Positions 6,681-64,000 of a stretch of DNA of 64,000 nt are shown piece by piece. Source of the stretch: an uncultured Phycisphaerales bacterium (GTDB lineage: Bacteria; Planctomycetota; Phycisphaerae; Tepidisphaerales; Tepidisphaeraceae); the NCBI GenBank assembly GCA_963755915.1, contig CAVWLP010000002.1:2080001-2144000 (forward strand). The letters are read 5' to 3'. Position numbers and translations under genes: made by a program. The notes beneath the pieces were generated by a model. The model saw nothing but the letters and a program-made list of their open reading frames with translations. It did not search any database and was not told the DNA's origin. Numbering within the stretch: the first letter of the stretch is position 1; each line of letters begins with the position of its first letter.

Positions 6681-6754
<74 letters not shown>

Positions 6755-47910: not shown

Positions 47911-48493
47911 GGGAACAGTTTCGGGTTCGTTTGGCGCACTCGATGCTGAGATAGCCCTCTTTTTTGATCGGTCGTACGTTTCGACGAAAGCGAACCCGGT
48001 CGCTCTCGGACATTGGAAAAGGACCGGCGGACACGATGTCCATATCGCCGCGAGGCATCAATTCCGTTTTTAATGACAACGAGGTCCGAGGCGTTTGTTC
48101 ATTGCTCGGTTACCAGTGATCGACCCAATTGAGCAAAACGGTGGATTTTCTGTTGCCCCGGGATGGTATTAGCATTACCGTTGACGAGGCGAATTCGAGG
48201 AACAACGGGCACCTTCAACCTATTCATGAATGTGAAAAAGCTGACAGAGCGCAGGGAAGATCTGTTAACAGAATTCTTCGCGGCCGCTTTGCATGTTTCC
48301 CCCACCACACGATGGCGTTATTATAAACTGGTGCTGAATGATTATTGCCGGCGCCGCGGGTGGGCAAATTGCGAAATTCGGACCGTGGACACCCAATCAT
48401 TCCGACAATTCGCTCGCTTTACCGCGCTAAGAGGCCTATTGTTTTATGTCAGTGGAGCTTAAATAAATTGGCTCCGACAGTATTTCGAAGTCC

Positions 48494-48605
48494 TCGGATG
48501 ACTAAATAGAGGGTAATCCGGCCAAAAACCGAAAGACCCGTTAACGAGTAAGCCGACGCAAATGAATCCTGAAACCTCGGGATTCGGGTGCGTCGGCCTT
48601 TTTTT
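48494..48605 (+). ncRNA. Candidate novel cis-regulatory RNA with terminator, copy A
   Basis: TCGGATGACTAA..GGGT..stem..GACCCGTTAACGAGTAAGCCGACGC..GCGTCGGC-T run; three copies in the window. Confidence 0.75.
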
Positions 48606-48675
48606 GGCGCGACGTTTCTCGAGGAAATTGCGCCGACTAATTCGAGCATATCTCTAAAATGAAGGGAGCGTCGTC

Positions 48676-48828
48676 ATGCTCTGGACTTTTGCACTGATAC
48701 TTATGGTCTTGTGGCTGCTCGGGGTCGTTACCTCATACACAGCCGGTGGATTGATCCACATTCTGTTGGTTGTGGCCCTGGTCGTCATCGTCGTCCGTCT
48801 CCTCCAGGGACGCAGGCCCCTGGCGTAG
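48676..48828 (+). CDS. lmo0937-family small membrane protein (50 aa)
   Basis: Below ORF-track cutoff; GGGAG RBS; MLWTFALILMVLWLLGVVTSYTAGGLIHILLVVALVVIVVRLLQGRRPLA. Confidence 0.9.
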   Translation: MLWTFALILMVLWLLGVVTSYTAGGLIHILLVVALVVIVVRLLQGRRPLA

Positions 48829-48949
48829 ATCCAAGCGGCTGGGCGTTCAATTGCGGGCGTCGGCGTCAATATTGTGGCGCTGTTCGGGCCTCACACGGCA
48901 AGAACGCCTGGCCGGTTTACCGAACAGCGGTTGCTTCAGGAGATCCGAT

Positions 48950-49243
48950 ATGAGTCGAATCAAACCAAACGCGAGGAAGTTAGTCGCTCCGATGGCGATG
49001 ACCCTGTTAATGGGTTTGGCCGGTTGCGTCGGGGGCTACGGGTATGTTGATGGAGGCCCGGAGTGGGATGGCGTAGTGGTTGTGGGGGGAGGATATGACA
49101 GAGGGTACAACCGCGATTACCACCCCCAGGCGTTTCACAACGAGGGCGGCCGGCCTGCGGCCGTCGCCAGCGCCAGGGGAAGGGCGTCGATGGGAGCACG
49201 CGCGGGCGGGGGACACGCGGCTTCTGGCGGCGAGCGCAGATGA
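48950..49243 (+). CDS. Small Gly-rich lipoprotein
   Basis: AGGAG RBS; lipobox LAGC; tail ASARGRASMG. Confidence 0.7.
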   Translation: MSRIKPNARKLVAPMAMTLLMGLAGCVGGYGYVDGGPEWDGVVVVGGGYDRGYNRDYHPQAFHNEGGRPAAVASARGRASMGARAGGGHAASGGERR

Positions 49244-49313
49244 TCGCCGCTCGGATTGAGCTCCTTGGCTGGGAGCAGTGGATCGATTGAACAACCATCG
49301 TGAGAAGAAATCT

Positions 49314-50306
49314 ATGAAAACAAAAATACGCGGAAATAGCGGATGGATTGCCGTCGCCCTATTGGCGGGCGGAGCTTTGCTTCTGACAAACGGGTGCAGT
49401 AGCACCACAAGTTCGCCAGCGGACGCGACTTCAGTACAGACCGCGGACATGCCCGGCCAGGGCCAACCATTATTTGCCAGCGACAACGAGGCGATGAATG
49501 CGATGCTGACGGCCGTCAAAAACCAGGACCATGAGCAAGTGCATCTCTTCCTTGGACCGGCATGGAAGGAACTTGTCTCCGGCGACAAGGTGGAGGACGG
49601 CAATGCTTTCAAGGAATTCGCCCAGCGCGCGGCTGAGCGCACGCGACTGCAACGGCAGGATGATACGACTTCCATCATGTATGTCGGCAATGACGATTGG
49701 CCGTTTCCGATCCCGATTGCGAAAACGTCCGATGGGAAATGGTTCTTCGACACCGAAGCCGGCAAAACGGAAATCCTGGCTCGCCGGATTGGTGCAAACG
49801 AACTGGAAACGATCGATGTGTGCCGGAAGTACATTGAAGCGCAGCGCGAGTATGCCAGCGAGGATCGCGATGGCAGCGGCGTACGCAAGTTCGCTCAAAG
49901 AATCATAAGCACGCCGGGGAAGACGGATGGCTTATACTGGAACGCAACCTCGGATCAGGAGCAAAGCCCATTCGGCCGATTGTTCGCGGCGGCGGCAACG
50001 CAGGGGTATGACCTGGCCGCAAGCCATCCGCGCCGGCCTTACTATGGATATCGCTTTCGCGTGTTGAAGCAACAGGGCTCCGCGGCGCCGGGCGGCACGA
50101 GCGACTACATCATCAACGGAGACATGACCGGCGGCTTTGCGCTGGTGGCCTTCCCCGAAGACTATGAATCATCGGGGATCATGACGTTCATCGTGAGTCA
50201 GCAAGGGGACGTCTATCAGAAGGACCTGGGCCCAAATACCACCCAGCTCGCGCGGCAGATGACGGAGTACAACCCCGATGCAAGCTGGACGCTGGTGAAA
50301 GATTAA
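49314..50306 (+). CDS. DUF2950 family lipoprotein
   Basis: GNDDWPFPIPI, EILARRIGANE, STPGKTDGLYW, PYYGYRF, SGIMTFIV, VYQKDLGP. Confidence 0.9.
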   Translation: MKTKIRGNSGWIAVALLAGGALLLTNGCSSTTSSPADATSVQTADMPGQGQPLFASDNEAMNAMLTAVKNQDHEQVHLFLGPAWKELVSGDKVEDGNAFKEFAQRAAERTRLQRQDDTTSIMYVGNDDWPFPIPIAKTSDGKWFFDTEAGKTEILARRIGANELETIDVCRKYIEAQREYASEDRDGSGVRKFAQRIISTPGKTDGLYWNATSDQEQSPFGRLFAAAATQGYDLAASHPRRPYYGYRFRVLKQQGSAAPGGTSDYIINGDMTGGFALVAFPEDYESSGIMTFIVSQQGDVYQKDLGPNTTQLARQMTEYNPDASWTLVKD

Positions 50307-50414
50307 ACATCGCGTCGGCGCATGCGCAACGGAAGGTAAATTATCGGCTATCCCACGTGCGCGGGTGGCGTTGGGCATTGTCGTTTGGCATCTGAACCCC
50401 CTGAGGCATCACAC

Positions 50415-52799
50415 ATGATCGCACCACTTGCACCACCACTTGCTCCGCCCGTCGCCAGTGATGTGTCCCCCAGCGAGTTGGATGCCAAATCATCGCAAGG
50501 CCTCACCAGCGAAGAGGCCCGGCGTTTGTTCGGCCAGTTCGGCCCCAACTCAATGCCCGATACGTCAGCGCATCCGGCGCGAATGGCTATCGAGAAGCTG
50601 TGGGCGCCGATCCCCTGGATGTTGGAAGCGGCGATCGTGCTGGAGTTGGTGCTTGGCAAATATATTGAAGCTGCGATTATCGCGGTGCTGCTGTTGTTCA
50701 ACGCCGCGCTTGGGTTCTTTCAGGAAGGGCGTGCCCAGGCAACGCTCGCCGCGTTGAAAAAGCGGCTGGCGCTGACTGCTTCGGTCCGCCGCGACGGGGC
50801 GTGGAAGAATTGCCCGGCGGCCGATTTGGTGCCGGGGGACATCGTGAATCTATCGCTTGGCGGCGTGGTTGTCGCGGATGTGAAGCTGGTCGAGGGCAAC
50901 GTCCTGCTCGATCAATCGATGCTCACGGGTGAATCGATCGCCATCGAAGCGGGGCCGGGATTCCAAACTTATGCGGGGGCGCTGGTGCGCCGCGGCGAGG
51001 CCGTGGCCCTGGTCACAGCGACCGGAATTCGGACCAAGTTCGGACGCACCGCGGAGCTGGTTCGCACGGCGCATGTTGTCAGCTCCCAGCAAAAGGCCGT
51101 GTTGCGCGTGGTGCGAAATCTCGCGGTGTTTAACGGCATTCTGATCATCGTCCTGGTTGGGTATGCCCTGACTCATTCGATGCCATGGAAGGAGATTCTT
51201 CCGCTGGTGCTGACAGCGGTTTTGGCGTCGATCCCGGTTGCACTGCCAGCCACGTTTACATTGGCGAGCGCTTTGGGGGCTCGAGCACTGGCGCGGCAAG
51301 GCGTGTTGCCGACACGGCTCTCCGCCGTCGATGAAGCGGCCTCCATCGATGTGTTATGCGCGGACAAAACTGGAACGCTCACGCGCAACGAGTTAACGGT
51401 GATGATGGTCGTCCCGATGCCGGGCTTCGACGAGCGGCATGTGCTGATGATGGCGGCCCTGGCCAGTTCGGAGGGTGGGCAGGACCCCGTGGACGAGGCG
51501 ATTTGTTGCTCCGTGTCGGGCAAAGTCGCTTCTAACCCACCCAAATTGTCCCACTTCGAGCCCTTCGATCCGGCGAAGAAGATGTCGGAGGCGACGGCGG
51601 TTGATTCGAGCGGAGGAACAATACGCATCATTAAGGGCGCGTTTGCCGTCGTCGGGAATCTTGCGGCGCCTTCGCCCGGCGCGCCCGCCGCGGCGAACGA
51701 ACTGGAGTCGAAAGGTTTTCGGGTACTCGCCGTGGCGGCTGGACCGCCAGCGGCGTTGCAGCTCATGGGGTTGATCGCGCTCAGCGATCCAGCCCGCGAC
51801 GATTCCGCGGCCCTGGTCACGGAACTGAAAACGCTGGGCGTTCGCACGGTGATGGTGACCGGCGACGCGCCGGCAACGGCGGCAATTGTGGCGCATGCCG
51901 TTGGTCTCGAAGGAGCGGTTTGCCCCCCCGGGCCGATCCCCAGCGACGCTCGCCCTGAAAGTTTTTCCGTCTTTGCCGGCGTTCTGCCCGAGGACAAATA
52001 TAAACTGGTGAAGGCATTCCAAAAGGGCGGTCACATCGTCGGCATGTGCGGCGACGGCGCCAACGATGCGCCGGCGCTGCGGCAGGCTCAGATGGGAATC
52101 GCCGTATCGACCGCGACCGATGTCGCCAAGTCCGCCGCGGGCATTGTGCTCACCAATCCGGGACTCGTTGGCATCGTTGACTCGGTCAAGGAAGGGCGTA
52201 TTACATTTCAACGCATCCTGACGTACACGCTGAACTCCATGACCAAGAAAATCGTGCAGGTGATGTTCCTTGGCGTGGGTCTTGTCATGACCGGGCACGC
52301 GATCCTCACCCCCATGCTGATGGTCATCGTGATGATGGTGGGTGATGTCCTGGGTATGTCGTTGACCACCGACAATGTCCGCCCGTCGCCGCTGCCAAAT
52401 AGCTGGCGCATCGGCAAGCTGACGGTCGCGGGCATATTTATAGGCGCGTCCGAACTGGTGTTTTGCTCCGCCGTTCTGGCGATTGGTCACTTTCGCATGG
52501 GCCTGGGCATTGCAATGTTGCAAACCCTGGCGTTCGTCACGCTGGTGTGCGGGAATCAGGCAACCACCTATGTTGTACGCGCACGCCGGCGAATATGGTC
52601 GTCACCCCGTCCAAGTCACTGGCTTGTCTTATCGTCCGTCGCCGATCTGTTGATCGCACTGGTACTGGCCGAACGCGGCTGGCTCATGCGGCCGCTGTCC
52701 CTATTGGTGTTGGTCAGCGTGCTTGGCGGCGCCATTGCGTTCACCTTTGTCCTGGATTTGGTAAAGGTGTCCGTGTTCAGACGCTTAGAGATTGCATAG
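50415..52799 (+). CDS. P-type ATPase, plasma-membrane H+-efflux (P3A) type
   Basis: PIPWMLE, DQSMLTGES, IPVALP, DKTGTLT, KGA, GDGANDAPAL. Confidence 0.88.
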   Translation: MIAPLAPPLAPPVASDVSPSELDAKSSQGLTSEEARRLFGQFGPNSMPDTSAHPARMAIEKLWAPIPWMLEAAIVLELVLGKYIEAAIIAVLLLFNAALGFFQEGRAQATLAALKKRLALTASVRRDGAWKNCPAADLVPGDIVNLSLGGVVVADVKLVEGNVLLDQSMLTGESIAIEAGPGFQTYAGALVRRGEAVALVTATGIRTKFGRTAELVRTAHVVSSQQKAVLRVVRNLAVFNGILIIVLVGYALTHSMPWKEILPLVLTAVLASIPVALPATFTLASALGARALARQGVLPTRLSAVDEAASIDVLCADKTGTLTRNELTVMMVVPMPGFDERHVLMMAALASSEGGQDPVDEAICCSVSGKVASNPPKLSHFEPFDPAKKMSEATAVDSSGGTIRIIKGAFAVVGNLAAPSPGAPAAANELESKGFRVLAVAAGPPAALQLMGLIALSDPARDDSAALVTELKTLGVRTVMVTGDAPATAAIVAHAVGLEGAVCPPGPIPSDARPESFSVFAGVLPEDKYKLVKAFQKGGHIVGMCGDGANDAPALRQAQMGIAVSTATDVAKSAAGIVLTNPGLVGIVDSVKEGRITFQRILTYTLNSMTKKIVQVMFLGVGLVMTGHAILTPMLMVIVMMVGDVLGMSLTTDNVRPSPLPNSWRIGKLTVAGIFIGASELVFCSAVLAIGHFRMGLGIAMLQTLAFVTLVCGNQATTYVVRARRRIWSSPRPSHWLVLSSVADLLIALVLAERGWLMRPLSLLVLVSVLGGAIAFTFVLDLVKVSVFRRLEIA

Positions 52800-52878
52800 T
52801 TCAACAGATATTCAATAATTTTGTGGGGACGGGACACCAAGCCCTCCAACTTACGACAGGGACAAAGAAGGATAAACA

Positions 52879-54630
52879 ATGAGCATGGCAATTTCCCTTC
52901 CAGCGGTTAAACCCGTCCCGACGCAAATGCAGCACCGCCAGATTCCCGTTTTGCCGGAACGCCCGCGCGTCCATCCTATCGCCTGCGAGATTCGCCGGTC
53001 GTATCCCGTCGGAAGGCAAAACTTCTCGCGCTTGCCAAGGGGAAGTTTTGGTCTTGACCATCACCTCTTGCGATCCAGTTCCCGAGAACGTTCAAGCGAG
53101 TCTTATGACGACGCTGAACTCGGATGATGGCAAGTCGTGGACCAAAGTCCCATTCGTGCGTGCCGATGAGCGGAATCTGACGTGCCACATCAGGCCCGAA
53201 CGTCCCGGCCTCCACTCCTTTCGGGCCGAGTTCTCCCTGGATCGGGGTACGACCTGGCTTCGGGACACCGTCCCCGACGCCTGGATATTGATCGATCCTT
53301 CACAAGTTGATGGCCTGCGCGTCTATACCCTGATTCCCGCCGTTTCCGGCACAGTCGCAGATTGGATGGCCGATCTGAAGCGCATCAGCGCGATGGGCTT
53401 CAATGCCATTCACCTTCTGCCGGTCACGACTTTGGACACATCACAAAGTCCGTATTCGGCCAAAGACCTGTTTGATATCGATCACAGTTACCTGATGGAA
53501 GGATCCCGGCAAGATGGCCTGTCGCAGTTGGAAGATTTTATCGCAGAAGCAAAGAGGCTCGACATACGTCTGATCTTTGATCTGGTCCTGAACCACGTGG
53601 GCGTGAACAGCACAATGGCACGGCGGGCGCCGGATTGGATTGTGCCGGACCAGAATCAGCCCGATCGGTTCCGGCGCGCACGGTATTGGTCCGACCAGGG
53701 GTGGCGTACCTGGAATGACCTCATCTTGATCAATTACGAACATCCCTCCGAGGCAATTCGTTCGGAAATACGGGCTTACATGGTGGACTACGCGCTGTTC
53801 TGGGCGAAATATGCAAATGACACCGGCGGGTTCGTGCGATTCGACAATCTGCACAGCAGCGACCCCGATTTCGTTACAGCGCTCACGGCATCGCTGCATT
53901 CAGAGTATCCCGAGGTGGGCATTCTCGCCGAGTATTTTACCGATGAAAGCACACTGCTGCGTACGGGACCGGAATGGGGGCTGAATCTGAATCTGGCGAC
54001 GCCGTGGAATTTCAAGTTTGTTCCTCAGCTTCGCGAATATCTCAATTACATTCACCGCGTTTCTGAGCACATTCGATACTTTGTGCCGATCACCTCGCAC
54101 GATTCCGGGTCGCCCGCGCAGGAGTTTGGCACCGCTGACTCGACGGTTCCGCGATACGTCACAGCCGCCTTGCTGGGCACCGGAGCCACCGGAATTCCGC
54201 AGGGAGTCGAATTCGGCGAGAAAGAACGGATCGATTTTATCGGCAGAAAACCGAAGATGATCTATCCCGTCGAGGCGAGGTTCGCCAAATTCATCAGCCG
54301 GGTTAACGCTATTCTCGTCGAGTATCCGGCCTTCCGTTGCGGGGGGAATTGCCGGTTCGTCGATAACGGGCATTCCGCTGTCATCGCCGCGTTCCGTGAA
54401 AGCTCGGGCACTGACGCGCAGGGATTTCTAGTCGCATGTAATTTCGATACGCAGAATCAACAGCACATAACGGTCGAGCTTGCGCCTTTGATCTCAACAG
54501 AGGGACCCTTCACATGCTGTGAATTGTTAAGCGGGGAGATTCAGCATTTCTCACAATCACACCTGGAGCTTGTGCTTCCCCCTTTCGTGCGCAAGTGCTG
54601 AAGTTTCTAAGAAACAATCAACCTAATTGA
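52879..54630 (+). CDS. GH13 alpha-amylase-family protein; frameshifts near 53030 and 54590
   Basis: GFNAIHLLP, SPYS, DLVLNH, RFDN, LAEYF, SHD. Confidence 0.82.
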
Positions 54631-54713
54631 AGGGCAATCTGTTTGCTTTGCCCGTAGTCATTCGTTTGCACGAAGCCTAGGATGGGTCAGCTACTGATCG
54701 TCTCTCGAAACAT

Positions 54714-54824
54714 TCGGATGACTAAATGAAGGGTATTTCGGCCCCCCAGCCGGAAGACCCGTTAACGAGTAAGCCGACGCAATTGAGTCCCGACACCTCG
54801 GGATTCGGATGCGTCGGCTTTTTT
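54714..54824 (+). ncRNA. Candidate novel cis-regulatory RNA with terminator, copy B
   Basis: Same architecture as 48494-48605; substitutions preserve pairing. Confidence 0.75.
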
Positions 54825-54866
54825 CGTTTCTGCCAAAATGGATATCCACTCACAGAGGTACTCTAT

Positions 54867-55823
54867 ATGAGAACACCCAGTCCTTTTGCCGCACTGATCT
54901 TTATCGTAATCCTCGGCATTGGCGGAGGGTTGGCGTTCGCCGCCTATAGCGCGGCGGCGCCGGAAAGAAGCGTGTGTATTGCAGTTGTCACTTTTGTGAT
55001 CGCGCTCATCGCCGCCCGCGCAATCAAGGTTGCCGATCAATGGGATAAAGCGGTGATCCTCCGTCTGGGCCAGTTCCACGCGCTCAAAGGGCCGGGGCTT
55101 TTCTTCATCATTCCAATTGTCGATGCCATTCCCTATTGGATCGACACGCGAGTCATCACGACCGGTTTCAAAGCGGAAAAAACCCTTACTAAAGACACGG
55201 TCCCGGTGGATGTGGATGCGGTGCTGTTTTGGAAAGTCATTGACCCGAAAAAGGCGGCGCTCGGTGTAGCTGATTATCGAAGCGCCATAAGCTGGGCGTC
55301 GCAAACAGCCCTGCGCGATGTGATCGGCAAAACCATGCTTTGCGACATGCTGGAAGGCCGGGACAAAATCAGTGAGCTGCTGCAGAAGATCATCGATGAG
55401 CGTACCGAACCGTGGGGAATCAACGTTATTTCCGTGGAAGTGAAAGACGTTTTGATCCCGCAGGCTTTGGAAAATGCCATGTCAATGCAGGCCCAGGCAG
55501 AAAGAGAGCGTCAAGCCAGGGTGATTCTGGGAGATTCCGAGCGACAGGTTGCCGAGAAGTTTGCCGAAGCCTCAAAAAGCTATCAGCACAATCCGGTCGC
55601 CTTTCATTTAAGGGCAATGAACATGCTCTATGAGGGCCTGAAGCAGAATTCCACCATCGTCATCGTTCCCAGTACGGCCGTGGAAAGCATGCAACTCGGG
55701 GGTCTCGCCGGATTGACGGCTCTGACCATGGGAATTGGTCAAGACGCCGCCAAGGGAAACGGAAAGGATGTCGCGAATCTTGGGACAAACGGCGAGCCTA
55801 CAGAACAGGCGTTACTCAGATGA
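54867..55823 (+). CDS. SPFH/band-7 (stomatin-like) protein
   Basis: GAGG RBS; GPGLFFIIP, TLTKDTVPVDVDAV, QTALRDVIG, QAQAERERQA. Confidence 0.92.
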   Translation: MRTPSPFAALIFIVILGIGGGLAFAAYSAAAPERSVCIAVVTFVIALIAARAIKVADQWDKAVILRLGQFHALKGPGLFFIIPIVDAIPYWIDTRVITTGFKAEKTLTKDTVPVDVDAVLFWKVIDPKKAALGVADYRSAISWASQTALRDVIGKTMLCDMLEGRDKISELLQKIIDERTEPWGINVISVEVKDVLIPQALENAMSMQAQAERERQARVILGDSERQVAEKFAEASKSYQHNPVAFHLRAMNMLYEGLKQNSTIVIVPSTAVESMQLGGLAGLTALTMGIGQDAAKGNGKDVANLGTNGEPTEQALLR

Positions 55824-55957
55824 ACGAAACAAGTATCGTTCGTTTGAGTATCGCATCATAACTCTTCGCCAATGGCTCGCATAGAAGAAGCCACCGCACA
55901 CCAGGAAGTGCAATCATTCATACGCTAAATAAAATTTCACCAGATAAGATTTCGCCT

Positions 55958-58351
55958 TTGGAGAAGGCTCCAGGCGCGCCTGGAGTTCCGCCGCGTTGGA
56001 CTTCCAGCGCCAAAACCGGCGTGGGCACGGCCCTCAGCAACAAGAGCCTTGTCTGGTTCACGCTGAGCCACGGAATCTTCAACGAAATCTTTTATCCGCG
56101 CGTCGATCAGGCCTGCATCCGCGACATGGGGCTGATTGTCACCGACGGAGCCGATTTCTTCTCAGAAGAAAAGAGGGATGTCGACTCGCTGGTCCACTGG
56201 CTGACTGAGGGTGTCCCGGCATTCCGGCTGGTCAATACGTGCCGCGCCGGCCGATACCGCATCGAAAAGCAAGTCGTGACCGATCCGCAGCGAAACACTG
56301 TGCTGCAGCGGGTCCAGTTCGTGCCGATGCAGGGCCACCTGTCCGATTATCATCTGTATGTCCTGCTGGCGCCGCATCTGGGGAACCACGGCGATGGCAA
56401 TAGTGCGTGGACCGACGAGTTTGAAGGCCTGCCGATCCTGTTTGCCCAGCGTGATGGATACGCCCTCGCGCTGGCCTGTTCCGCGCCATTCCTGAAGCGA
56501 TCCGTCGGCTACGTCGGCTCGTCCGACGGCTGGCAGGATCTAAAGGCGCATAATCAGATGACCTGGGAATACACGCGGGCTCAGAACGGTAACGTGGCCC
56601 TGACTGCCGAGATCGATCTTCTTCATTGTAAGGGACACTGCGAATTGGCGTTGGGCTTTGGCAAAAGTGCAGAAGAAGCCGCGAAAAACGCCGTCGCCAG
56701 CCTTCACGATGGCTTTGACAACATAAAGCACGAATATATTTCCGGCTGGCAGCACTGGAAGAAGTCGCTCATCTCGACAAAAAAAGACCATCTCCCTCTC
56801 GGCGATCTTTCCCCGATCAGCCTGGCAGTCTTGCGCACGCATGAGTCAAAAACTGCCCTCGGCGGTTTCATCGCCAGCCTCGCCATCCCATGGGGATCAA
56901 GCAAGGGCGACGGCGACCAGGGCGGTTACCATCTTGTCTGGTCGCGCGACATGGTAGAAACGGCGGGCGCGTTGCTGGCCGGCGGTGCACATGAAGACGC
57001 GCGCCGCGCGCTATCTTTTTTGCAGTCAACTCAACAGCCGGACGGACACTGGCCTCAAAACATGTGGGTGGATGGCACACCGTATTGGAACGGAATCCAA
57101 CTGGACGAGACTGCGCTGCCTATCCTGCTGGTGGACTTGGCCCATCGTGAAAAAGCGCTAACCGACGCGGACGTAGTGCGATTCTGGCCGATGGTGGAGC
57201 TCGCTGTGGGTTACTTGGCGCGCAATGGCCCCGTAAGCCCTCAAGATCGCTGGGAGGAAGATCCGGGCTATTCGCCTTTCACGGTCGCGGCGGAAATCGC
57301 CGCGATCCTGGCCGCGGCGGACATGGCTGATTTGAACCACGAACCGTCCATGGCAACCTACCTCCGCGAAATCGCGGATACTTGGAACACGTCGATTGAT
57401 CGCTGGATGTACGCGTCGAAAACGGACTGGTGCCGCAAGTTCGATGTCCAGGGGTATTACCTCAGGATCGCGCAGGACGAGACCGCGGATGGTGCGCGTT
57501 TTCAGAACCTCGTCCACGTGAAGAATGTTGCGGCCGCCGAGGACAACCGTATGGCCAGACATCTGGTAAGTCCCGACGCCTTGGCACTGGTGCGTTTTGG
57601 TTTGCGCGCGGCGGACGACCCGCGCATTCTCGGCACAGTAAAAGTCATCGATTCATTGCTCAAAGTGGAGACGCCCACTGGCCCCAGTTGGCACCGGTAC
57701 AACGATGATGGGTATGGCGAGCATAAGGACGGCGCGCCCTTTGACGGAACGGGTATCGGCCGCGTCTGGCCACTACTCACAGGTGAGCGGGCTCACTACG
57801 AACTGTTGGCAAATCGGGTGCAGTGTGCAAAGGTACTATTGGCCACAATGGAATCGTTTGCCAACGAAGGAGGGCTGATCTCAGAACAAATCTGGGACTC
57901 GCCCGACCTGCCGGAACATGATTTGTTTCTCGGCAAGCCTTCCGGTTCCGCCATGCCGCTGGTTTGGGCTCATGCTGAGTACATCAAGCTCAGGCGTTCT
58001 CTACGCGACGGACACGTTTTCGACCTGCCGCCACAGACCGTGCAACGCTATCTGGTCGACAAAACGGTGTCTCCTCGCATGGTGTGGAGGTTCAACCACA
58101 AACTTCGTTCTATGCCCGCGGGAAAATCCCTGCGTGTCGAAACGCTTTCCCCCGCGGTTATTCACTGGAGCGTTGATGATTGGAAAACTCATCAGGACAC
58201 AAAGTCGCGCGATGCGGGCCTAGGCCTTCACGTTGCGGATCTCTCCACCCAATCGCTTCCGGACGGACAAGAGATCAAATTCACTTTCTACTGGCCCGGC
58301 GCGGGTCACTGGGAAGGAACCGACTTCATCGTTCGTATCGGCTCTTTTTGA
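55958..58351 (+). CDS. GH15 glucoamylase/glucodextranase-like
   Basis: WTSSAKTGVG, GGYHLVWSRD, QLDET, QDRWEE, YNDDGYGE, SAMPLVWAHAEY. Confidence 0.93.
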   Translation: MEKAPGAPGVPPRWTSSAKTGVGTALSNKSLVWFTLSHGIFNEIFYPRVDQACIRDMGLIVTDGADFFSEEKRDVDSLVHWLTEGVPAFRLVNTCRAGRYRIEKQVVTDPQRNTVLQRVQFVPMQGHLSDYHLYVLLAPHLGNHGDGNSAWTDEFEGLPILFAQRDGYALALACSAPFLKRSVGYVGSSDGWQDLKAHNQMTWEYTRAQNGNVALTAEIDLLHCKGHCELALGFGKSAEEAAKNAVASLHDGFDNIKHEYISGWQHWKKSLISTKKDHLPLGDLSPISLAVLRTHESKTALGGFIASLAIPWGSSKGDGDQGGYHLVWSRDMVETAGALLAGGAHEDARRALSFLQSTQQPDGHWPQNMWVDGTPYWNGIQLDETALPILLVDLAHREKALTDADVVRFWPMVELAVGYLARNGPVSPQDRWEEDPGYSPFTVAAEIAAILAAADMADLNHEPSMATYLREIADTWNTSIDRWMYASKTDWCRKFDVQGYYLRIAQDETADGARFQNLVHVKNVAAAEDNRMARHLVSPDALALVRFGLRAADDPRILGTVKVIDSLLKVETPTGPSWHRYNDDGYGEHKDGAPFDGTGIGRVWPLLTGERAHYELLANRVQCAKVLLATMESFANEGGLISEQIWDSPDLPEHDLFLGKPSGSAMPLVWAHAEYIKLRRSLRDGHVFDLPPQTVQRYLVDKTVSPRMVWRFNHKLRSMPAGKSLRVETLSPAVIHWSVDDWKTHQDTKSRDAGLGLHVADLSTQSLPDGQEIKFTFYWPGAGHWEGTDFIVRIGSF

Positions 58352-58387
58352 GGCGATGTAATTGTCTCTACTAAAGCGGTGAGGTTC

Positions 58388-59764
58388 ATGCTGCTGAAGA
58401 ACGATACAAAAACCGACGCAAGACTGTTCGTTTATCTTGCCACGGCTGTCGCGGCTCTGGGAGGCATGCTTTTCGGTTATGACATCGGCGTCATCTCCGG
58501 AGCAATTCTATTCGTCAAGAAGGACTTCTCGCTTTCTCCCGGCCTCGAAGAAATTGTGGTCAGCTCGGTCTTGCTGGGATCGTTAATCGGCGCGATCGCT
58601 GGAGGAGTGCTCGCCGACCGCTGGGGGCGCCGGAGATTGTTGATCATTACGGCGATCGTCTTTGGGTTGGGCGCTATCGGGGCGGCTCTGTCGCCAGACA
58701 CCGCGTTGCTGATCGTCGCCAGGGTCATTGCCGGCATTGCCATCGGCGTGGCTTCTTTTGTCGCACCGCTCTATATCTCCGAAATCGCCCCGGTGGCTAT
58801 CCGTGGAAAGCTCGTTTCGGTCAATCAAGTGGCCCTGACCAGCGGCATTGTCATCTCCTATCTGATCGATTACGCATTCGCGGACGCTCACGCGTGGCGC
58901 TGGATGTTTGCGCTGGCGGTAGTGCCGGCGGCCGCGTTCGGAATCGGATTGCTTTTCATCCCCGAGAGCCCGCGATGGCTTGTCGGACGCGGATTGGCGG
59001 ACAAGGCCCGCGCCGTACTCAATCGAATTCGCGCTCCAGACCAAGTGGAAGCTGAGCTTGGCGAGATTCAGCATAGCGCTCAGCAGCAGAAAGCGAACTG
59101 GAAAGAACTGCTGAGTCCTGTCTTGCGGCCGGCGATGATCGTTGGCGTCGGTCTCGCGGTCGCGCAGCAAATCACCGGCATAAACACCGTCATCTATTAT
59201 GCCCCGACGATTTTCAAATTCGCCGGTTTATCTTCCGCATCCGTGGCCATCCTGGCCAGCGTCGGTGTGGGAATCGTCAATGTCATCTTAACTATAGTGG
59301 CAATGCAATTAATCGACCGCGTCGGGCGCCGTCCGCTTCTGTTGGTCAGTCTCGCTGGGATGTCGCTAAGTCTAATTGTGCTCGGATTGGCGTTTAGGCT
59401 TCCCCGACTGTCCGGCAGTCTCGGATGGATCGCGGTGACGAGCCTCATGCTCTACGTCGGTTCGTTCGCCGTCGGTCTGGGCCCGGTATTTTGGCTGATC
59501 CTCTCCGAGATTTATCCACTGCGTATCCGAGGCCGGGCCATGAGCGTCGGGACGGTCGCAAATTGGGGCGCCAACCTGATCGTGGCATTATCGTTTTTGA
59601 CGCTCACACAAGTCATGGGTAAATCCGCCACGTTCTGGTTGTATGGGATCGTAAGTATCGGGGCATGGCTCTTCGCGTTTTTCCTGGTGCCGGAAACCAA
59701 GGGCAAGACTCTCGAACAGATCGAAGCACATTGGCGGGCGGGAAAACGCCCAAGGGAACTCTGA
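58388..59764 (+). CDS. MFS sugar porter (GalP/XylE-like)
   Basis: LFGYDIGVISGA, DRWGRR, PESPRWL, QQITGIN, PETKG. Confidence 0.95.
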   Translation: MLLKNDTKTDARLFVYLATAVAALGGMLFGYDIGVISGAILFVKKDFSLSPGLEEIVVSSVLLGSLIGAIAGGVLADRWGRRRLLIITAIVFGLGAIGAALSPDTALLIVARVIAGIAIGVASFVAPLYISEIAPVAIRGKLVSVNQVALTSGIVISYLIDYAFADAHAWRWMFALAVVPAAAFGIGLLFIPESPRWLVGRGLADKARAVLNRIRAPDQVEAELGEIQHSAQQQKANWKELLSPVLRPAMIVGVGLAVAQQITGINTVIYYAPTIFKFAGLSSASVAILASVGVGIVNVILTIVAMQLIDRVGRRPLLLVSLAGMSLSLIVLGLAFRLPRLSGSLGWIAVTSLMLYVGSFAVGLGPVFWLILSEIYPLRIRGRAMSVGTVANWGANLIVALSFLTLTQVMGKSATFWLYGIVSIGAWLFAFFLVPETKGKTLEQIEAHWRAGKRPREL

Positions 59765-59792
59765 AAATTTTACACAAGAAGAAAGGACTACC

Positions 59793-60659
59793 ATGTTGAA
59801 CAGAACTAACACGTTGCGAAATTATGCCTTGGACTGCCTCGACGGACGGATAGGAGAGGTCAAGGAATTCTACTTCGACGACTGCTACTGGACGATTCGT
59901 TATCTTGTCGCCGAAACCGGAAACTGGCTCACGGGCAGACAAGTGTTGATTTCTCCGCGTGCGCTCCATGCCGTTAATAAGGAAGAACAAAAGATCGCTG
60001 TAGATTTGAACAAAAAGCAGATTCAAGACAGTCCATCCGTGGACAGTGACGAGCCCGTCTCGCGGCAATTCGAGAAGGCCTACCACGGGTACTATGGATG
60101 GCCGATATATTGGGGCGGCTCATACATGTGGGGAACATCCGGATACCCATACCTGGCGGGGCCTTATCCCGGCGTTGCGCGTGAGCGCAAAGAATTGGCG
60201 GAAGCCACCCGAAGTGAGCAAGCGTGGGATCCCCATTTGCGCAGCACGCACGATGTGAGTGGCCGTCATGTCCATGCTACTGACGGCGAGATTGGCCACG
60301 TTGAGGATTTTATCATCGATGACCAGACATGGGCGATCCGTTATCTGATCATCGATACACGAAACTGGTGGCCGGGAAAGAAGGTCCTGGTGGCACCGCG
60401 ATGGATCGAGAGGGTTAGCTGGAGCGAGGCAAAAGTTTTCATCAATCTCTCCCGCGAGGCCATCAGGCAGTCGCCGGAATACACGGAAGCATCTTTGCTA
60501 ACCCGGGATTACGAGACCCGACTTCATCGGCATTACGATCGGCGGGGATACTGGGTGGATGAGCCGGCTTCCGGGGAATGCGACGAACAACCACAAGTCC
60601 ACGGCAAGGAACGAGCGCCCGCTGAAATCGCGCAACATAAAAAACCGATTGGAATCTGA
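59793..60659 (+). CDS. Tandem PRC-barrel domain protein
   Basis: Two repeats of DGxIGxVxxFxxDDxxWxIRYLxxxTxNW. Confidence 0.9.
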   Translation: MLNRTNTLRNYALDCLDGRIGEVKEFYFDDCYWTIRYLVAETGNWLTGRQVLISPRALHAVNKEEQKIAVDLNKKQIQDSPSVDSDEPVSRQFEKAYHGYYGWPIYWGGSYMWGTSGYPYLAGPYPGVARERKELAEATRSEQAWDPHLRSTHDVSGRHVHATDGEIGHVEDFIIDDQTWAIRYLIIDTRNWWPGKKVLVAPRWIERVSWSEAKVFINLSREAIRQSPEYTEASLLTRDYETRLHRHYDRRGYWVDEPASGECDEQPQVHGKERAPAEIAQHKKPIGI

Positions 60660-60781
60660 TGTCACGGGGCGCGCCAAAACCAGCCAGGGCGGGGCGCTTC
60701 AAAACCGGCCAATGTGCTGACGTATTCTATACCGCATCCGTTCTATCCGACGCAACTGTTCCTTGAGTTATTGGTCCCCGT

Positions 60782-61672
60782 TCACGCCGTCTGGCCGGCG
60801 GATACCCCCACATCAGAAGACAACGGCGGCTCTGTCACGGTGTCTTCCGGGGGGGAGCACCCTTCATCGCCGGCGGTACTCCGCCGTCCTTTTGGATTTG
60901 TCTTTTCCGGTGTCCCGGATTGGCCTGCCGTGAGCGAAGTCGAATGGCCCCCATGCCGAAGGCGGTAGCTCTTGCCGGTGATGTTGATGATCGTGGCGTG
61001 CTGCAGGAACCGATCCAGAATGGCCGTGGCCGCCGGCACGTCGCCGATCAGCTTGGCCCAGTCCTCCAGTGGACGGTTGCTGGTCATCATCGTCGAGCGG
61101 TTCTCGTGCCGGCGCATGACGATCTCCAGCAGGCATTCGCCGCTGCGCCGCGGAAGCTGCTTCATTCCCATGTCGTCGATGATAAGCAGATCAGGCTTGA
61201 GATACCGGGCCAGCGTCTTGTCCTGGGCTCCCAGATCCTCGTCGCCTAAAAAGTCGCGGGCCAGGTCGAAGATGGATCGGTACAGGACCACCAAGCCGCT
61301 CTTGATCGCCTGGTGTCCGATGGCCTGGGCCAAAAACGATTTGCCCACGCCGGGCGGACCCAGCAAGAGCACGTCACGTTTGTCACGAATGAACTGGCCG
61401 GCGGCCAGATCGTGAATCTGTTTGCGTTTGATGGAGGTGTTGAAGGAGAAGTCGAACTCGTCGAGGTTTTTGGTGTCGCGGAACATCGCCGCCTTGACGC
61501 GCCGGCCGATCTGCCGGCTGGATCGGACGTTCAGTTCATCCTGAAGGATCAGTTCCAAAAACTCACTGTGGTCGAGCCGATTGCCGGCCGCCTCGCTCAG
61601 GCGAACTTCAAGGCTGCTCGCCAGACCTGAAAGCCGAAGTTGCTTGAGCGTCTGCATCAACGAAGGTCTCAT
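60782..61672 (-). CDS. istB: IS21 helper ATPase IstB
   Basis: LKQLRLSG, FDFSFN, GPPGVGKS, LLIIDD, TSNR, AILDR. Confidence 0.95.
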   Translation of the reverse strand: MRPSLMQTLKQLRLSGLASSLEVRLSEAAGNRLDHSEFLELILQDELNVRSSRQIGRRVKAAMFRDTKNLDEFDFSFNTSIKRKQIHDLAAGQFIRDKRDVLLLGPPGVGKSFLAQAIGHQAIKSGLVVLYRSIFDLARDFLGDEDLGAQDKTLARYLKPDLLIIDDMGMKQLPRRSGECLLEIVMRRHENRSTMMTSNRPLEDWAKLIGDVPAATAILDRFLQHATIINITGKSYRLRHGGHSTSLTAGQSGTPEKTNPKGRRSTAGDEGCSPPEDTVTEPPLSSDVGVSAGQTA

Positions 61673-63399
61673 GGGGTGGACTCCCTTCGGCTCTGCTCAG
61701 GGCAGGCCTGTAAAGGTTGTGCGGCAGGCAAAGCCTCCGCTTGGGTGATTGCGTCGCGTACGAACTGTCCGTAATCGGCCAGTCCGCGGATGATTGGATG
61801 TTCCTGAACAAACTCGAAGTGTTGTTGAACCGGCGCGCCGTTTTGGTGTTCGATGAGCTGCCGCAGGGAGCGCAGGTGATACGCGCCATGCCCCAGAGCA
61901 ATCTCGCAGGCTCGTTCCACGGCCGGTCGCGGCTGCTGATTGGCCAGCGACAGCAGCCCCATCAACACGCGCACGCCTTCGATGCCGCGATGCTGAAGCA
62001 TTGACTGCGCCCACTGCGTGGCGTGCGGCCCGATGCATTCGATCCGCTGGAGAAGCCAGGTCGTTCCACGCTCGATGCCGCTGATCTTCTCCGGCAGGAT
62101 ATGGGCGTCTTGCGTCGAGAACCTGCCCGGCGGACGCTGCGCGTGCAGAGCGATCGCACGCATCTTCTGATCGAACAGCCGGACCGTGCGCCCGTCCCAC
62201 CGCGCCCAGACCCGCTGGCCCAAAAACTCCGGCGGGACCGAATAGTACGCCCCCTTGATCTCCACGTGCCCGTCGCGGTGAACACTGCGCAACGCCTCGG
62301 TGAAAAGATCGAATCGCACCGGCGGCAGAGCCAACAGTGCCGGCTTCTCTACCTGCTCGAAGACTTCCTTCACCTGCCGCCGCGTCGTGCCGTGGATGCG
62401 CGTGTCGGCCACGCTCTTCTCCCACGTCAGCAGATGCGCGTTCTGATCCGAGAGCGAGGCGAATTGCCGGCCTTTGAGAGCATTGCTCTTCACATAGCCG
62501 ATGCCCCGCTCGATCTTCCCCTTGTGCCGCGGCGTGTACGGCTTGGTGGGCAGAATGGCGATTCCATAATGTTCGGCGAACGACCGGACCTTGGGACACA
62601 ACTCCGCCTCGAACCAGTCCGCCCGCGTCACCGCCGCGCGAAGATTGTCGATCACCAGCGCTGACGGCATCCCGCCGAAGTGCGTAAAGGCATTTTCCAG
62701 ACAACGCAGAAAATCATCGGTCGTCTGCCGCTCCACCGCCTCGGCGTACCCCTTGCGGCTGTGGCTCAGCACAATGCGGAAGACCCAGGTTGCTTTGCGT
62801 TTGCCGTCAGGACCGACCAGGGCGCACCCCGGCCGAAGTCCACCTGCGCCTCGGCTCCCGGCTCGCATTCCATCCGGCGAAAGGGCGCCGGCGCGGCAGC
62901 CGAGAGCTTCTTGATGAACCGGCGCACGCTGTAATAGCTGCCGGCATAGCCGTGATCGCTGGAGATGTCTTGATAAATCCGCTGGGCCGTCAGCCCGGCT
63001 TCCAACTTCTGAACAATGACCTCACGCCAGGGCGATGCCGTACTGACCGACCCGATCGGCGCGCCGGATAACCCGGTGGGCGCGCTCTCCGAGCCGCCTG
63101 CGGCGAGCACCGTCGAGCCGCCTGCGGCGAGCACCGTCGAGCCGCCTGCGGCGAGCACCGTCGAGCCGCCTGCGGCGAGCACCGTCGAGCCGCCTGCGGC
63201 GAGCACCGTCGAGCCGAGGGGCGCGCTGGCCGGTTTTGAATCCGATCCGGGCGCCGCAGGATCGCCGCCCGACAACCGGATGTGGCGTCCAACGGTCTCC
63301 CGGTGAACGCCGAGTTGGCGGGCGATGTTCCGATTGGACCAGCCGCTGCGCAAGTGCCAAAATTGCTTGTACTTCCGCCATCTTGAGTTGATTGGCCAT
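61669..63399 (-). CDS. istA: IS21 transposase IstA; frameshifts near 63350 and 62830
   Basis: MANQLKMA, HTH, YYSVRRF, PGAEAQVDFG, DNLRAAV, KGKIERG, YYSVP. Confidence 0.92.
63091..63216. repeat. 24-bp tandem repeat x5 inside istA
   Basis: GAGCCGCCTGCGGCGAGCACCGTC x5 plus a partial unit; encodes (GSTVLAAG)5. Confidence 0.95.
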
Positions 63400-63650
63400 C
63401 CCACCATTGGCTTGCGGCAACCGCCGAAAGCCAAGGTCGATAACCCAATCTCCTGTGCCTCAAAATGGCCGGTTTTGGCGCGCCCTCAATTGGCCGGTTT
63501 TGCGCGCCCCATGACAATCTGATTTGGATGATATTGCTGGAACTGCATGTGGCCGGCCGGTTATCGCCAAATATAGCGACGATTATCCTTCCTTTGCCGG
63601 TTCTAAGGTAGAACCCAAATGGATAGGATTCCGGCAGACGATTGAACATC

Positions 63651-63758
63651 TCGGATGACTAATTGAGGGGTAGATCGGCCAACGGCCGGTGGACCCGTTA
63701 AAGAGTAAGCCGACGCAATTGAATCCTGAAACCTCGGGATTCGGTGGCGTCGGTTTTT
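63651..63758 (+). ncRNA. Candidate novel cis-regulatory RNA with terminator, copy C
   Basis: Same architecture as copies A and B. Confidence 0.75.
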
Positions 63759-63775
63759 CTGTTGATTGGAAAATA

Positions 63776-63997
63776 ATGAGCGGCACTAAGCATTCTGTTG
63801 AAAGCGAAGGATCCAAGTCACGGGATCACGCCCAACCGCGCCACCATTTTTGGAAACATGCGCACCGGGATTGGCGCGTCTGGGTCACTGTGCTGCTGAT
63901 GCTCCTTGCGATGGTTATCTATGTAATAACGGACAACCTGTCCCTCAGACCCGGCAAACGCGCGATTCAGCCCACGCCTGAGGCAAATGGCCCTTAG
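63776..63997 (+). CDS. Small single-TM membrane protein
   Basis: MSGTKHS...HHFWKHAHRDWRVWVTVLLMLLAMVIYVITDNLS. Confidence 0.7.
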   Translation: MSGTKHSVESEGSKSRDHAQPRHHFWKHAHRDWRVWVTVLLMLLAMVIYVITDNLSLRPGKRAIQPTPEANGP

Positions 63998-64000
63998 AAC

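Follow-up and report, generated by a model that had tools for sequence, protein, structure and literature searches.

The stretch of DNA analysed here (the window, 64,000 nt) belongs to contig CAVWLP010000002.1 of the Tepidisphaeraceae genome GCA_963755915.1, which comprises 6.6 Mb in 3 contigs. It carries three copies (A, B and C) of a leader RNA element, all on the plus strand. Genes were called from open reading frames (ORFs) and Pfam matches, and all window coordinates are counted from the first letter of the stretch. An earlier reading made from the letters alone (the sequence-only reading) had described the copies as an unrecognised structured leader with an intrinsic terminator, and this was borne out by shuffled sequences, by covariation and by the lack of an Rfam match. 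The three elements were confirmed, and so was every motif listed for them, namely TCGGATGACTAA, GGGT/ACCC enclosing a stem that varies in sequence yet pairs, the linker GTTAA(C/A)GAGTAA, a hairpin running from GCCGACGC to GCGTCGG, and a T run. The names given to neighbouring genes also stand: lmo0937 family (NF033488, DUF5670), P-type ATPase, SPFH/Band 7, and glucodextranase_N+GH15. The distance from the T run to the start codon was about 70 nt in copy A, 42 nt in copy B and 17 nt in copy C. Elsewhere, copies of the element accompany genes for proteins of the MpsC/DUF2294 family (PF10057).

In the alignment of the copies the edges of conservation were sharp, with TCGG as the start and the T run as the end. 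By blastn, copies A and C were 86% and 84% identical to copy B. Full-length folds of A, B and C had energies of −45.0, −56.1 and −56.5 kcal/mol, with z values of −4.65, −7.04 and −6.65 against dinucleotide shuffles, and for each copy 0 of 200 shuffles folded as well. The leader RNA family is undescribed so far and matches no Rfam 15 family. At gathering thresholds none fitted the window elements; at E≤10 copy A gave only a chance terminator-like match (17.9 bits against a gathering threshold of 48.5), and 16 diverse related loci gave 0 matches at E≤0.01. No published description of this leader RNA was found in a literature search. The main texts of two motif surveys (PMC11109978, PMC5737381) contain neither planctomycetes nor DUF2294; their supplements could hold unnamed motifs. 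The only candidate planctomycete cis-regulatory RNA motif found in the literature was Rhodopirellula-1, which is not in Rfam and which overlaps a transposase-resistance motif (Weinberg et al. 2010, PMC2864571). Identity with Rhodopirellula-1 was rejected, as the Stockholm alignment in the supplement of that paper shows another sequence and structure.

A search of the genome with copy B by blastn gave nine sense copies. The covariance model built from these nine (R1) gave 21 matches in the same genome at E≤0.01, of which 11 were full-length sense copies (69-132 bits) and 10 were weak antisense matches on the near-palindromic terminators. The element is therefore a multi-copy family that extends well beyond the three copies first noticed. 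The copies are grouped in islands: four lie within 23 kb (three in the window and one 7.5 kb past its end), three within 2.6 kb on the same contig, and three within 13.5 kb, plus one more, on another contig. R1 matched 32 of 101 related genomes, this one included, among them all 12 other members of the genus and 24 of 60 genomes in the family; these relatives are not independent of each other and include one unpublished genome (G014), from which locus L044 of the orientation and covariation sets also derives. An even sample of 150 other genomes across the phylum, searched with stricter filters, contained the RNA in 5. A scan for a pattern of two motifs, with one genome per species, retrieved at least 132 stretches. 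Among the matches listed, nearly all were titled as metagenome-assembled genomes (MAGs) of Planctomycetota, from both major classes (Pirellulales, Planctomycetaceae, Gemmataceae, Isosphaeraceae, Thermoguttaceae, Phycisphaerae and Tepidisphaeraceae); the exceptions were one Chloroflexi label and one chance match labelled Limnohabitans, all MAG labels being those of the depositors. Eighty source loci were retrieved by the pattern, which fixes CGGA.GACT and AGTAAGCCGACG, and R1 found 95 full-length sense matches on them. Five other genomes had 1 (Chloroflexi-labelled), 13, 12, 8 and 4 (planctomycete-labelled) matches, which were again clustered. The family is real and multi-copy, and it is patchy across the phylum.

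Two variations on this theme were seen. Direct tandem pairs of leaders, 6-20 nt apart, were present at L090 1196-1431, L135 1023-1268 (−), G102:C133:14190-14428 (−) and L194 1511-1715, and none of these pairs had a promoter between its members. In a divergent class of the RNA the main motifs are replaced by GGCAGAU(C/U) and GAUA(A/G)GCC, the rod-like hairpin is shorter, and the sigma-70 promoters are near-consensus; the GGCAGAU of this class stands where the main class has GGAUGACU. The divergent class lies next to mpsC-A, the gene of the shorter MpsC paralogue, in L190, L193, L194 and L195, and was also found in L191 and L196. Genomes with the divergent class appeared RNA-free under the filtered search.

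RNAalifold, applied to the nine blastn copies, gave an irregular hairpin (the rod) followed by a terminator. In 113 sequences aligned to the covariance model, an alignment that is fitted to the model itself, 94.8% of the cells were paired and 26 of 35 pairs had changed on both sides. The number of doubly changed cells was 340, as against 99.9±11 in shuffled alignments (0 of 500 reached it) and 52-80 when the partners were slid. Starting from the base of the rod, the helices P1a (UCGG/CCGA), P1b (ACU/AGU) and P1c are separated from one another by two 3x3 loops; beyond P1c come an A.G mismatch, the helix P1d (GGGY/RCCC) and a variable tip. The first 3x3 loop holds A.G in 112 of 113 sequences, then N.A, then G.A in all 113. 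When six divergent variants were added, all three pairs of P1b showed compensatory changes (ACU/AGU to AUU/AAU and AUC/GAU). Helices 3 and 4, those of the terminator, were paired in 98.8% and 90.5% of the 113 sequences, and the predicted stable, G+C-rich hairpin stands directly before the U run.

The sequence-only reading had proposed that the 5' UCGG could pair with CCGA to form an antiterminator. When the terminator 3' arm was omitted, the rod closed by UCGG/CCGA was the minimum free energy structure in 128 of 130 copies, whereas in the full-length copies the same bases paired in the terminator, also in 128 of 130; the three window copies agree. CCGA belongs to the first bases of the terminator 5' arm, GCCGACG. 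Because the 3' strand of the rod base is thus the start of the terminator, rod and terminator are predicted to be mutually exclusive, and this overlap would explain the sequence conservation of the terminator base. The proposed antiterminator is thermodynamically coherent, and covariation backs it weakly: with the divergent variants included, the outer pair of P1a was UA in 15, CG in 3 and UG in 2 sequences.

The features of the window copies and the genes behind them are given in Table 1. A simple consensus scan for terminators listed none of the three, because it requires an unbroken stem abutting the T run and the stems here have internal mismatches. In copy A the terminator 5' arm and the rod overlap in GCCGA, and a further hairpin lies between the putative transcription start and the rod; its GGAGCC/GGCTCC inverted repeat recurs in many relatives. 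The distance of 17 nt from the T run of copy C to the ATG suggests that the gene behind it would be reachable by read-through alone. For the protein of this gene no family match was found in Pfam or NCBIfam, and a phosphoketolase gene comes after it, past the end of the window.

Table 1. Leader elements in the window, their parts, and the genes behind them.
Feature	Coordinates	Strand	Basis
Copy A, whole element	48494-48605	+	
Copy A, tentative −10 hexamer TATTGT	48437..48442	+	putative, from a regular-expression match at −58 from the C of CGGA
Copy A, 5' hairpin, GGAGC...GCTCC core	48447..48479	+	RNAfold of −50..−5: −11.5 kcal/mol, z −2.15
Copy A, rod hairpin UCGG...CCGA, conserved 3x3 internal loops	48494..48556	+	truncated fold −18.2 kcal/mol, z −3.5; covariation
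Copy A, terminator (hairpin 48552-48598, T run 48599-48605)	48552..48605	+	terminator form in full-length fold
lmo0937/DUF5670, behind copy A	48676-48828	+	Pfam, NCBIfam NF033488, ORFs
DUF2950, behind copy A	49278-50306	+	Pfam
P-type ATPase, behind copy A	50385-52799	+	Pfam
Amylase/debranching-like gene, behind copy A	53048-54601	+	Pfam
Copy B, whole element	54714-54824(-26)	+	
Copy B, rod hairpin	54714..54777	+	truncated fold −25.1 kcal/mol, z −4.2, UCGG/CCGA-closed
Copy B, terminator (hairpin 54773-54818, T run 54819-54824)	54773..54824	+	full fold
SPFH/Band 7, behind copy B	54867-55823	+	Pfam
Glucodextranase_N+GH15, behind copy B	55958-58351	+	Pfam
MFS sugar transporter, behind copy B	58379-59764	+	Pfam
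PRC-barrel protein, behind copy B	59793-60659	+	Pfam
Copy C, whole element	63651-63758	+	
Copy C, rod hairpin	63651..63713	+	truncated fold −29.8 kcal/mol, z −5.4
Copy C, terminator (hairpin 63709-63754, T run 63754-63758)	63709..63758	+	full fold
73-aa predicted membrane protein, behind copy C	63776..63997	+	ORF

The orientation of the element was examined on 107 instances, taking the longest ORF per strand that overlapped the first 700 nt downstream. A Pfam match at E≤1e-4 was found for 73 of 106 same-strand ORFs and for 2 of 105 opposite-strand ORFs. One of these two was below its cut-off; the other was a match to PF10712, 'NAD-specific glutamate dehydrogenase' (L132:1311-2462, −, 325.7 bits), opposite an Hsp70/DnaK match, which resembles the known antisense-of-DnaK artefact and is probably no gene. 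Same-strand matches spanned about 50 families, so conserved synteny is not the cause of the co-orientation; MpsC accounted for 9 of the 106 ORFs. Among the downstream families were YflT, ice-binding-like, SPFH, P-type ATPases, ferritin/Dps, Hsp20, Hsp70, BON, PRC-barrel, DUF3309, DUF2934, PLD and fatty-acid desaturases. There were also regulators (sigma-70/extracytoplasmic function sigma factors, PAS and histidine kinases, a response regulator and, once, CsrA) and carbon enzymes (phosphoketolase, transketolase, 6-phosphogluconate dehydrogenase, class-I aldolase, phosphoglucomutase, GT4/starch synthase, and sucrose-phosphatase-like HAD proteins). Such a gene set resembles the general-stress regulons of other bacteria. 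The sequence-only reading had taken the downstream genes to point to an osmotic, ion or pH signal; genes of this kind are present, but the set is broader and general-stress-like.

The strict co-orientation argues against a miniature inverted-repeat transposable element (MITE) and against a free-standing small RNA (sRNA) gene, and it favours a cis-acting leader or attenuator. We consider it likely that the element is a cis-acting conditional terminator. The opposite view, that there is no switch and that the copies are a MITE-like repeat, a constitutive promoter-plus-terminator insulator, or DNA operators for a DNA-binding MpsC, is very improbable. It would suit the multi-copy islands next to IS21 copies, the patchy distribution (5 of 150 genomes in the phylum sample against 24 of 60 in the family) and the fact that the two conserved motifs form an imperfect inverted repeat in DNA. 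It does not suit the strict orientation, the compensatory changes in RNA pairs or the fixed distance to a promoter. The flanks of the copies are unrelated as far as that promoter, and neither terminal inverted repeats nor target duplications were seen on reading the flanks. Operators are unlikely because the half-sites are 43-60 bp apart with variable spacing.

Upstream of the element, TAnnnT started at −61, −60 or −59 from CGGA in 44 of 127 instances, compared with about 1.7 expected per position, and it occurred within −66..−54 in 72 of 127. A TTG-type −35 element lay 17 nt upstream of TAnnnT. In many copies transcription apparently begins about 45-50 nt before the start given by the sequence-only reading, from a sigma-70-like promoter whose distance to the element is fixed. 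The segment of about 45 nt between this promoter and UCGG had a mean z of −1.04, against −0.13 in a control segment, and it frequently folds into a GGAGCC/GGCUCC hairpin. In the divergent variants the promoters come close to the consensus (TTGACA-17-TATAGT is one example) and the 5' end is shorter. Two candidate features of the 5' region were rejected: a leader peptide AUG ACU AAA UAA, seen in this genus, since the U of its AUG is 70% conserved and is replaced by C or A, and a mini-hairpin that would use the four bases before UCGG, since its registers conflict between copies. UCGGAUGA looks like a candidate CsrA/RsmE site.

A promoter of its own at a fixed distance and a strong terminator, both judged by sequence only, could also mean that the short terminated RNA is the main product. 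It would then act in trans, either as a base-pairing sRNA with a conserved 5' single-stranded seed or as a decoy that titrates MpsC in the manner of CsrB and CsrA, and its placement before stress genes would be incidental. The many copies per genome (11 here, 4-13 in four planctomycete-labelled genomes, one in the Chloroflexi-labelled genome) and the extreme conservation of the unpaired stretches are in keeping with this, and RNA chaperones often bind a conserved terminator base plus a U tail. Genes for sRNAs show no orientation rule, however, whereas 73 of 106 against 2 of 105 ORFs were matched here; start codons follow 17-70 nt past the T run, which leaves no room for a promoter in copy C, and tandem copies lack promoters of their own. 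We regard a main role in trans as improbable.

An all-against-all comparison of the flanking ORFs showed that the dominant family was PF10057. An MpsC ORF lay within 1.5 kb of 59 of 130 instances, upstream-divergent in 42, upstream on the same strand in 11, and directly downstream in 25. In the genome of the window, 5 of 5 PF10057 genes (59.5-129.6 bits, cut-off 23) were within about 400 nt of a copy. Two paralogues can be told apart. MpsC-A (about 126 aa) is always encoded upstream of an RNA copy and is, in planctomycete-labelled loci, 62-84% identical to the protein of this genome; MpsC-B (about 140 aa) is encoded directly behind an RNA copy. The linkage was also seen from the protein side. 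In metagenomic loci chosen solely by mpsC-A, with an alignment of A-type sequences only, the RNA was found within 900 nt in 69 of 80, and in 10 of the 11 loci without it the upstream flank was incomplete. In the commonest layout RNA and mpsC-A point away from each other, with about 115 nt between the modelled 5' end of the RNA and the start codon of the gene, and there is often another RNA behind the gene. A class-level sample had the RNA at 16 of 19 mpsC-A loci. Among the 101 relatives, 26 had both RNA and MpsC, 6 the RNA only (with few or weak matches), 2 MpsC only, and 67 neither. The corresponding numbers in the phylum sample of 150 were 4, 1, 7 and 138, and in 6 of the 7 MpsC-only genomes an unfiltered search detected a divergent RNA beside mpsC (E 7.5e-8 to 1.6e-3).

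One MAG labelled as Aggregatilineales (Chloroflexi) has a single mpsC-A followed by a single RNA copy of 60.1 bits (L066/G101:C73:8444-9013), and PF10057 was found in none of the 200 further genomes sampled from that phylum. Either the pair was transferred horizontally as one or the contig was mis-binned; RNA and mpsC seem to move together. In the core module of the window's genome a 100-aa ORF (G000:C2:1452888-1453190, +) lies between the RNA copy and mpsC-B, and it has no match in Pfam, NCBIfam or PADLOC.

PF10057 also occurs in longer proteins. There were 632 longer homologues at E≤1e-5, and a receiver domain was present in 59 of the 120 listed. Six fusion proteins were checked with Pfam; three were receiver-MpsC proteins with an N-terminal receiver and a C-terminal MpsC domain, and the others included PAS-MpsC and a hybrid-kinase type, receiver-PAS-kinase-MpsC. 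The class sample includes a full receiver-MpsC gene that is followed, 1.36 kb downstream and in the same orientation, by an RNA copy. The domain architecture indicates that the A-type MpsC domain serves as an output domain of two-component systems. Neither MpsC-A nor MpsC-B has a match in NCBIfam or PADLOC. In the literature as far as it was accessible, nothing on MpsC/DUF2294 was found beyond S. aureus MpsABC, and no function for DUF2294.

A-type MpsC proteins contain an invariant H-(H/T)-D-I-S-T-x-T-G-E stretch (positions 98-108 in the protein of this genome) and a GRGP motif. In the B-type paralogues the histidines of that stretch are lost. The invariant stretch could be a contact site for a metal, a ligand or a nucleic acid.

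The predicted antiterminator overlaps the terminator and a gene for a candidate regulator, mpsC-A, is linked to it, as is the case in protein-dependent antitermination. Given the mpsC linkage and the response-regulator output domain, we rate a protein effector no less likely than a ligand. We propose, tentatively and with slightly less than even confidence, that an MpsC-domain protein stabilises the antiterminator rod of a conditional-terminator leader on the mRNA. A sigma-70-like promoter would drive the leader, which would be about 165 nt long in many copies. By default the terminator would win, a short RNA would be released and the downstream stress genes would stay off. MpsC-A from the gene beside the RNA would bind the conserved purine-rich loops and keep the rod closed, a task that would fall to a receiver-MpsC response regulator in some relatives; the terminator base would then be blocked, and RNA polymerase would read into the stress genes. 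MpsC-B, being encoded directly behind a leader copy, would itself be induced and may feed back.

Several points weigh against this proposal. P1a is just 4 bp long; two of its pairs are invariant, covariation is confined to one, and 5 of 22 sequences do not form the pair 6-85, so that the case for the antiterminator comes mostly from conservation and thermodynamics. The apparent invariance of the two main motifs is inflated, because they were fixed by the retrieval pattern. The terminator is also far more stable than the rod. On the protein side, sequence and profile searches of the PDB gave nothing below E 0.16, so no solved homologue of MpsC was found, and the protein has no known nucleic-acid-binding motif. 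A co-variation of RNA class with protein class was not supported, as L066 combines the variant-type HT/ER (for HH/EE) with a main-type RNA. MpsC-B is also among the regulated genes (9 of the 106 longest downstream ORFs), and part of the linkage could therefore merely mean membership of the regulon.

If the effector is a small molecule, a second messenger or an ion, the element would be an ON riboswitch with the rod as its aptamer, in which the ligand stabilises UCGG/CCGA and prevents the terminator, and MpsC would be a core member of the regulon or the maker or sensor of the same signal. The architecture is one that ON riboswitches share. The element is a covarying structured domain in the 5' leader of co-oriented genes, mutually exclusive structures are predicted from folding energies in 128 of 130 copies, and the terminator 5' arm contains the 3' strand of the closing helix. 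Invariant loop nucleotides stand between covarying stems, copies occur in tandem, the position in the 5' leader is constant, and the GGCAGAU variant of the loop recalls the specificity variants of riboswitches. In ON-type transcriptional riboswitches such as the pbuE adenine riboswitch, likewise, the closing helix of the aptamer and the terminator exclude each other, and conserved unpaired nucleotides, covarying stems and tandems are found. Unlike there, the genes here suggest no ligand, Rfam has no match, and a signalling protein is tightly linked. The regulon is metabolically incoherent (chaperones, Dps, sigma factors, kinases, sugar enzymes), and a riboswitch would leave the near-obligate linkage of mpsC-A unexplained, since mpsC-A is upstream or divergent and outside the control of the RNA, and MpsC is a signalling output domain. 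The rod is simple, with neither junction nor pseudoknot, although some known riboswitch classes are likewise simple rods. We consider a riboswitch rather unlikely; should the effector prove to be a ligand, the element would be a new candidate orphan riboswitch whose regulon is unusually large and informative.

Antitermination by MpsC, as proposed above, would have its nearest parallels in two known systems. The ANTAR proteins (EutV, AmiR, NasR/NasT) share with MpsC the combination of a receiver and a small C-terminal output domain, a regulator gene beside leaders that overlap terminators, and one leader type common to several operons; protein-stabilised antitermination would be the common principle. 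In contrast, the output domain here is PF10057, which Pfam found by itself or together with receiver or PAS domains and with no ANTAR match, and the RNA, compared by eye, is one long rod with 3x3 loops in place of the pair of small hexaloop hairpins that defines ANTAR leaders. The ribonucleic antiterminator (RAT) of the BglG/LicT/SacY proteins is also an imperfect hairpin with conserved internal loops whose 3' part overlaps the terminator 5' arm, and its regulator is encoded directly beside a target leader, as in the order mpsC-A, RNA, mpsC-B with a leader copy between the two genes. The present system differs in lacking CAT and PRD domains and any sugar phosphotransferase system context, in the length of its rod (about 63 nt against about 30 nt) and in a regulon made up of stress genes. 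As the defining ANTAR, CAT and PRD domains and RNA motifs are lacking, the element may work in a similar way but is no member of either group.

The broadest form of the proposal is that MpsC/DUF2294 is an unrecognised RNA-binding output domain, analogous to ANTAR, which antiterminates a dispersed regulon, and that the module travels as a unit. Taken as a whole we think it conceivable but doubtful. If it were true, MpsC would act stand-alone or fused to a receiver on roughly 4-13 operons per genome, and Planctomycetota of soil and peat would run a general stress response through RNA attenuation and not through an alternative sigma factor. The module of mpsC-A, RNA and mpsC-B would pass between lineages. 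Should the narrower proposal of MpsC-dependent antitermination hold, the leader would mark a general-stress-like regulon from sequence (chaperones, Dps, BON/YflT, membrane ATPases, carbohydrate enzymes, sigma factors and kinases). The widespread PF10057 would gain a function, and a new protein-RNA pair would join the few antitermination systems. To our knowledge, gene regulation in the Planctomycetota is almost unexplored.

Mobile and duplicated DNA was found around the copies. An IS21-type insertion sequence (IS) element occupies 60782-62868 (−) of the window, between the copy B operon and copy C, and encodes IstB (60782-61672) and an IstA-like integrase (61669-62868). The RNA/mpsC cluster at C2:1.45 Mb is flanked by ORFs that share the starts of these IS21 proteins; the occurrence of same-start ORFs at both places suggests that one and the same IS borders the stress islands. 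The SPFH-GH15-MFS block of copy B (54714-59764) and the block of copy C (63651-64000; small membrane protein, then phosphoketolase) have paralogous blocks on contig C3 (61700-67143). Each of these has its own RNA copy, which indicates a joint duplication of leader and genes. Rfam had just two matches in the window, a TPP riboswitch (RF00059, 1880-1981, +, 72.2 bits) and a tRNA (6681-6754, +, 67.7 bits).

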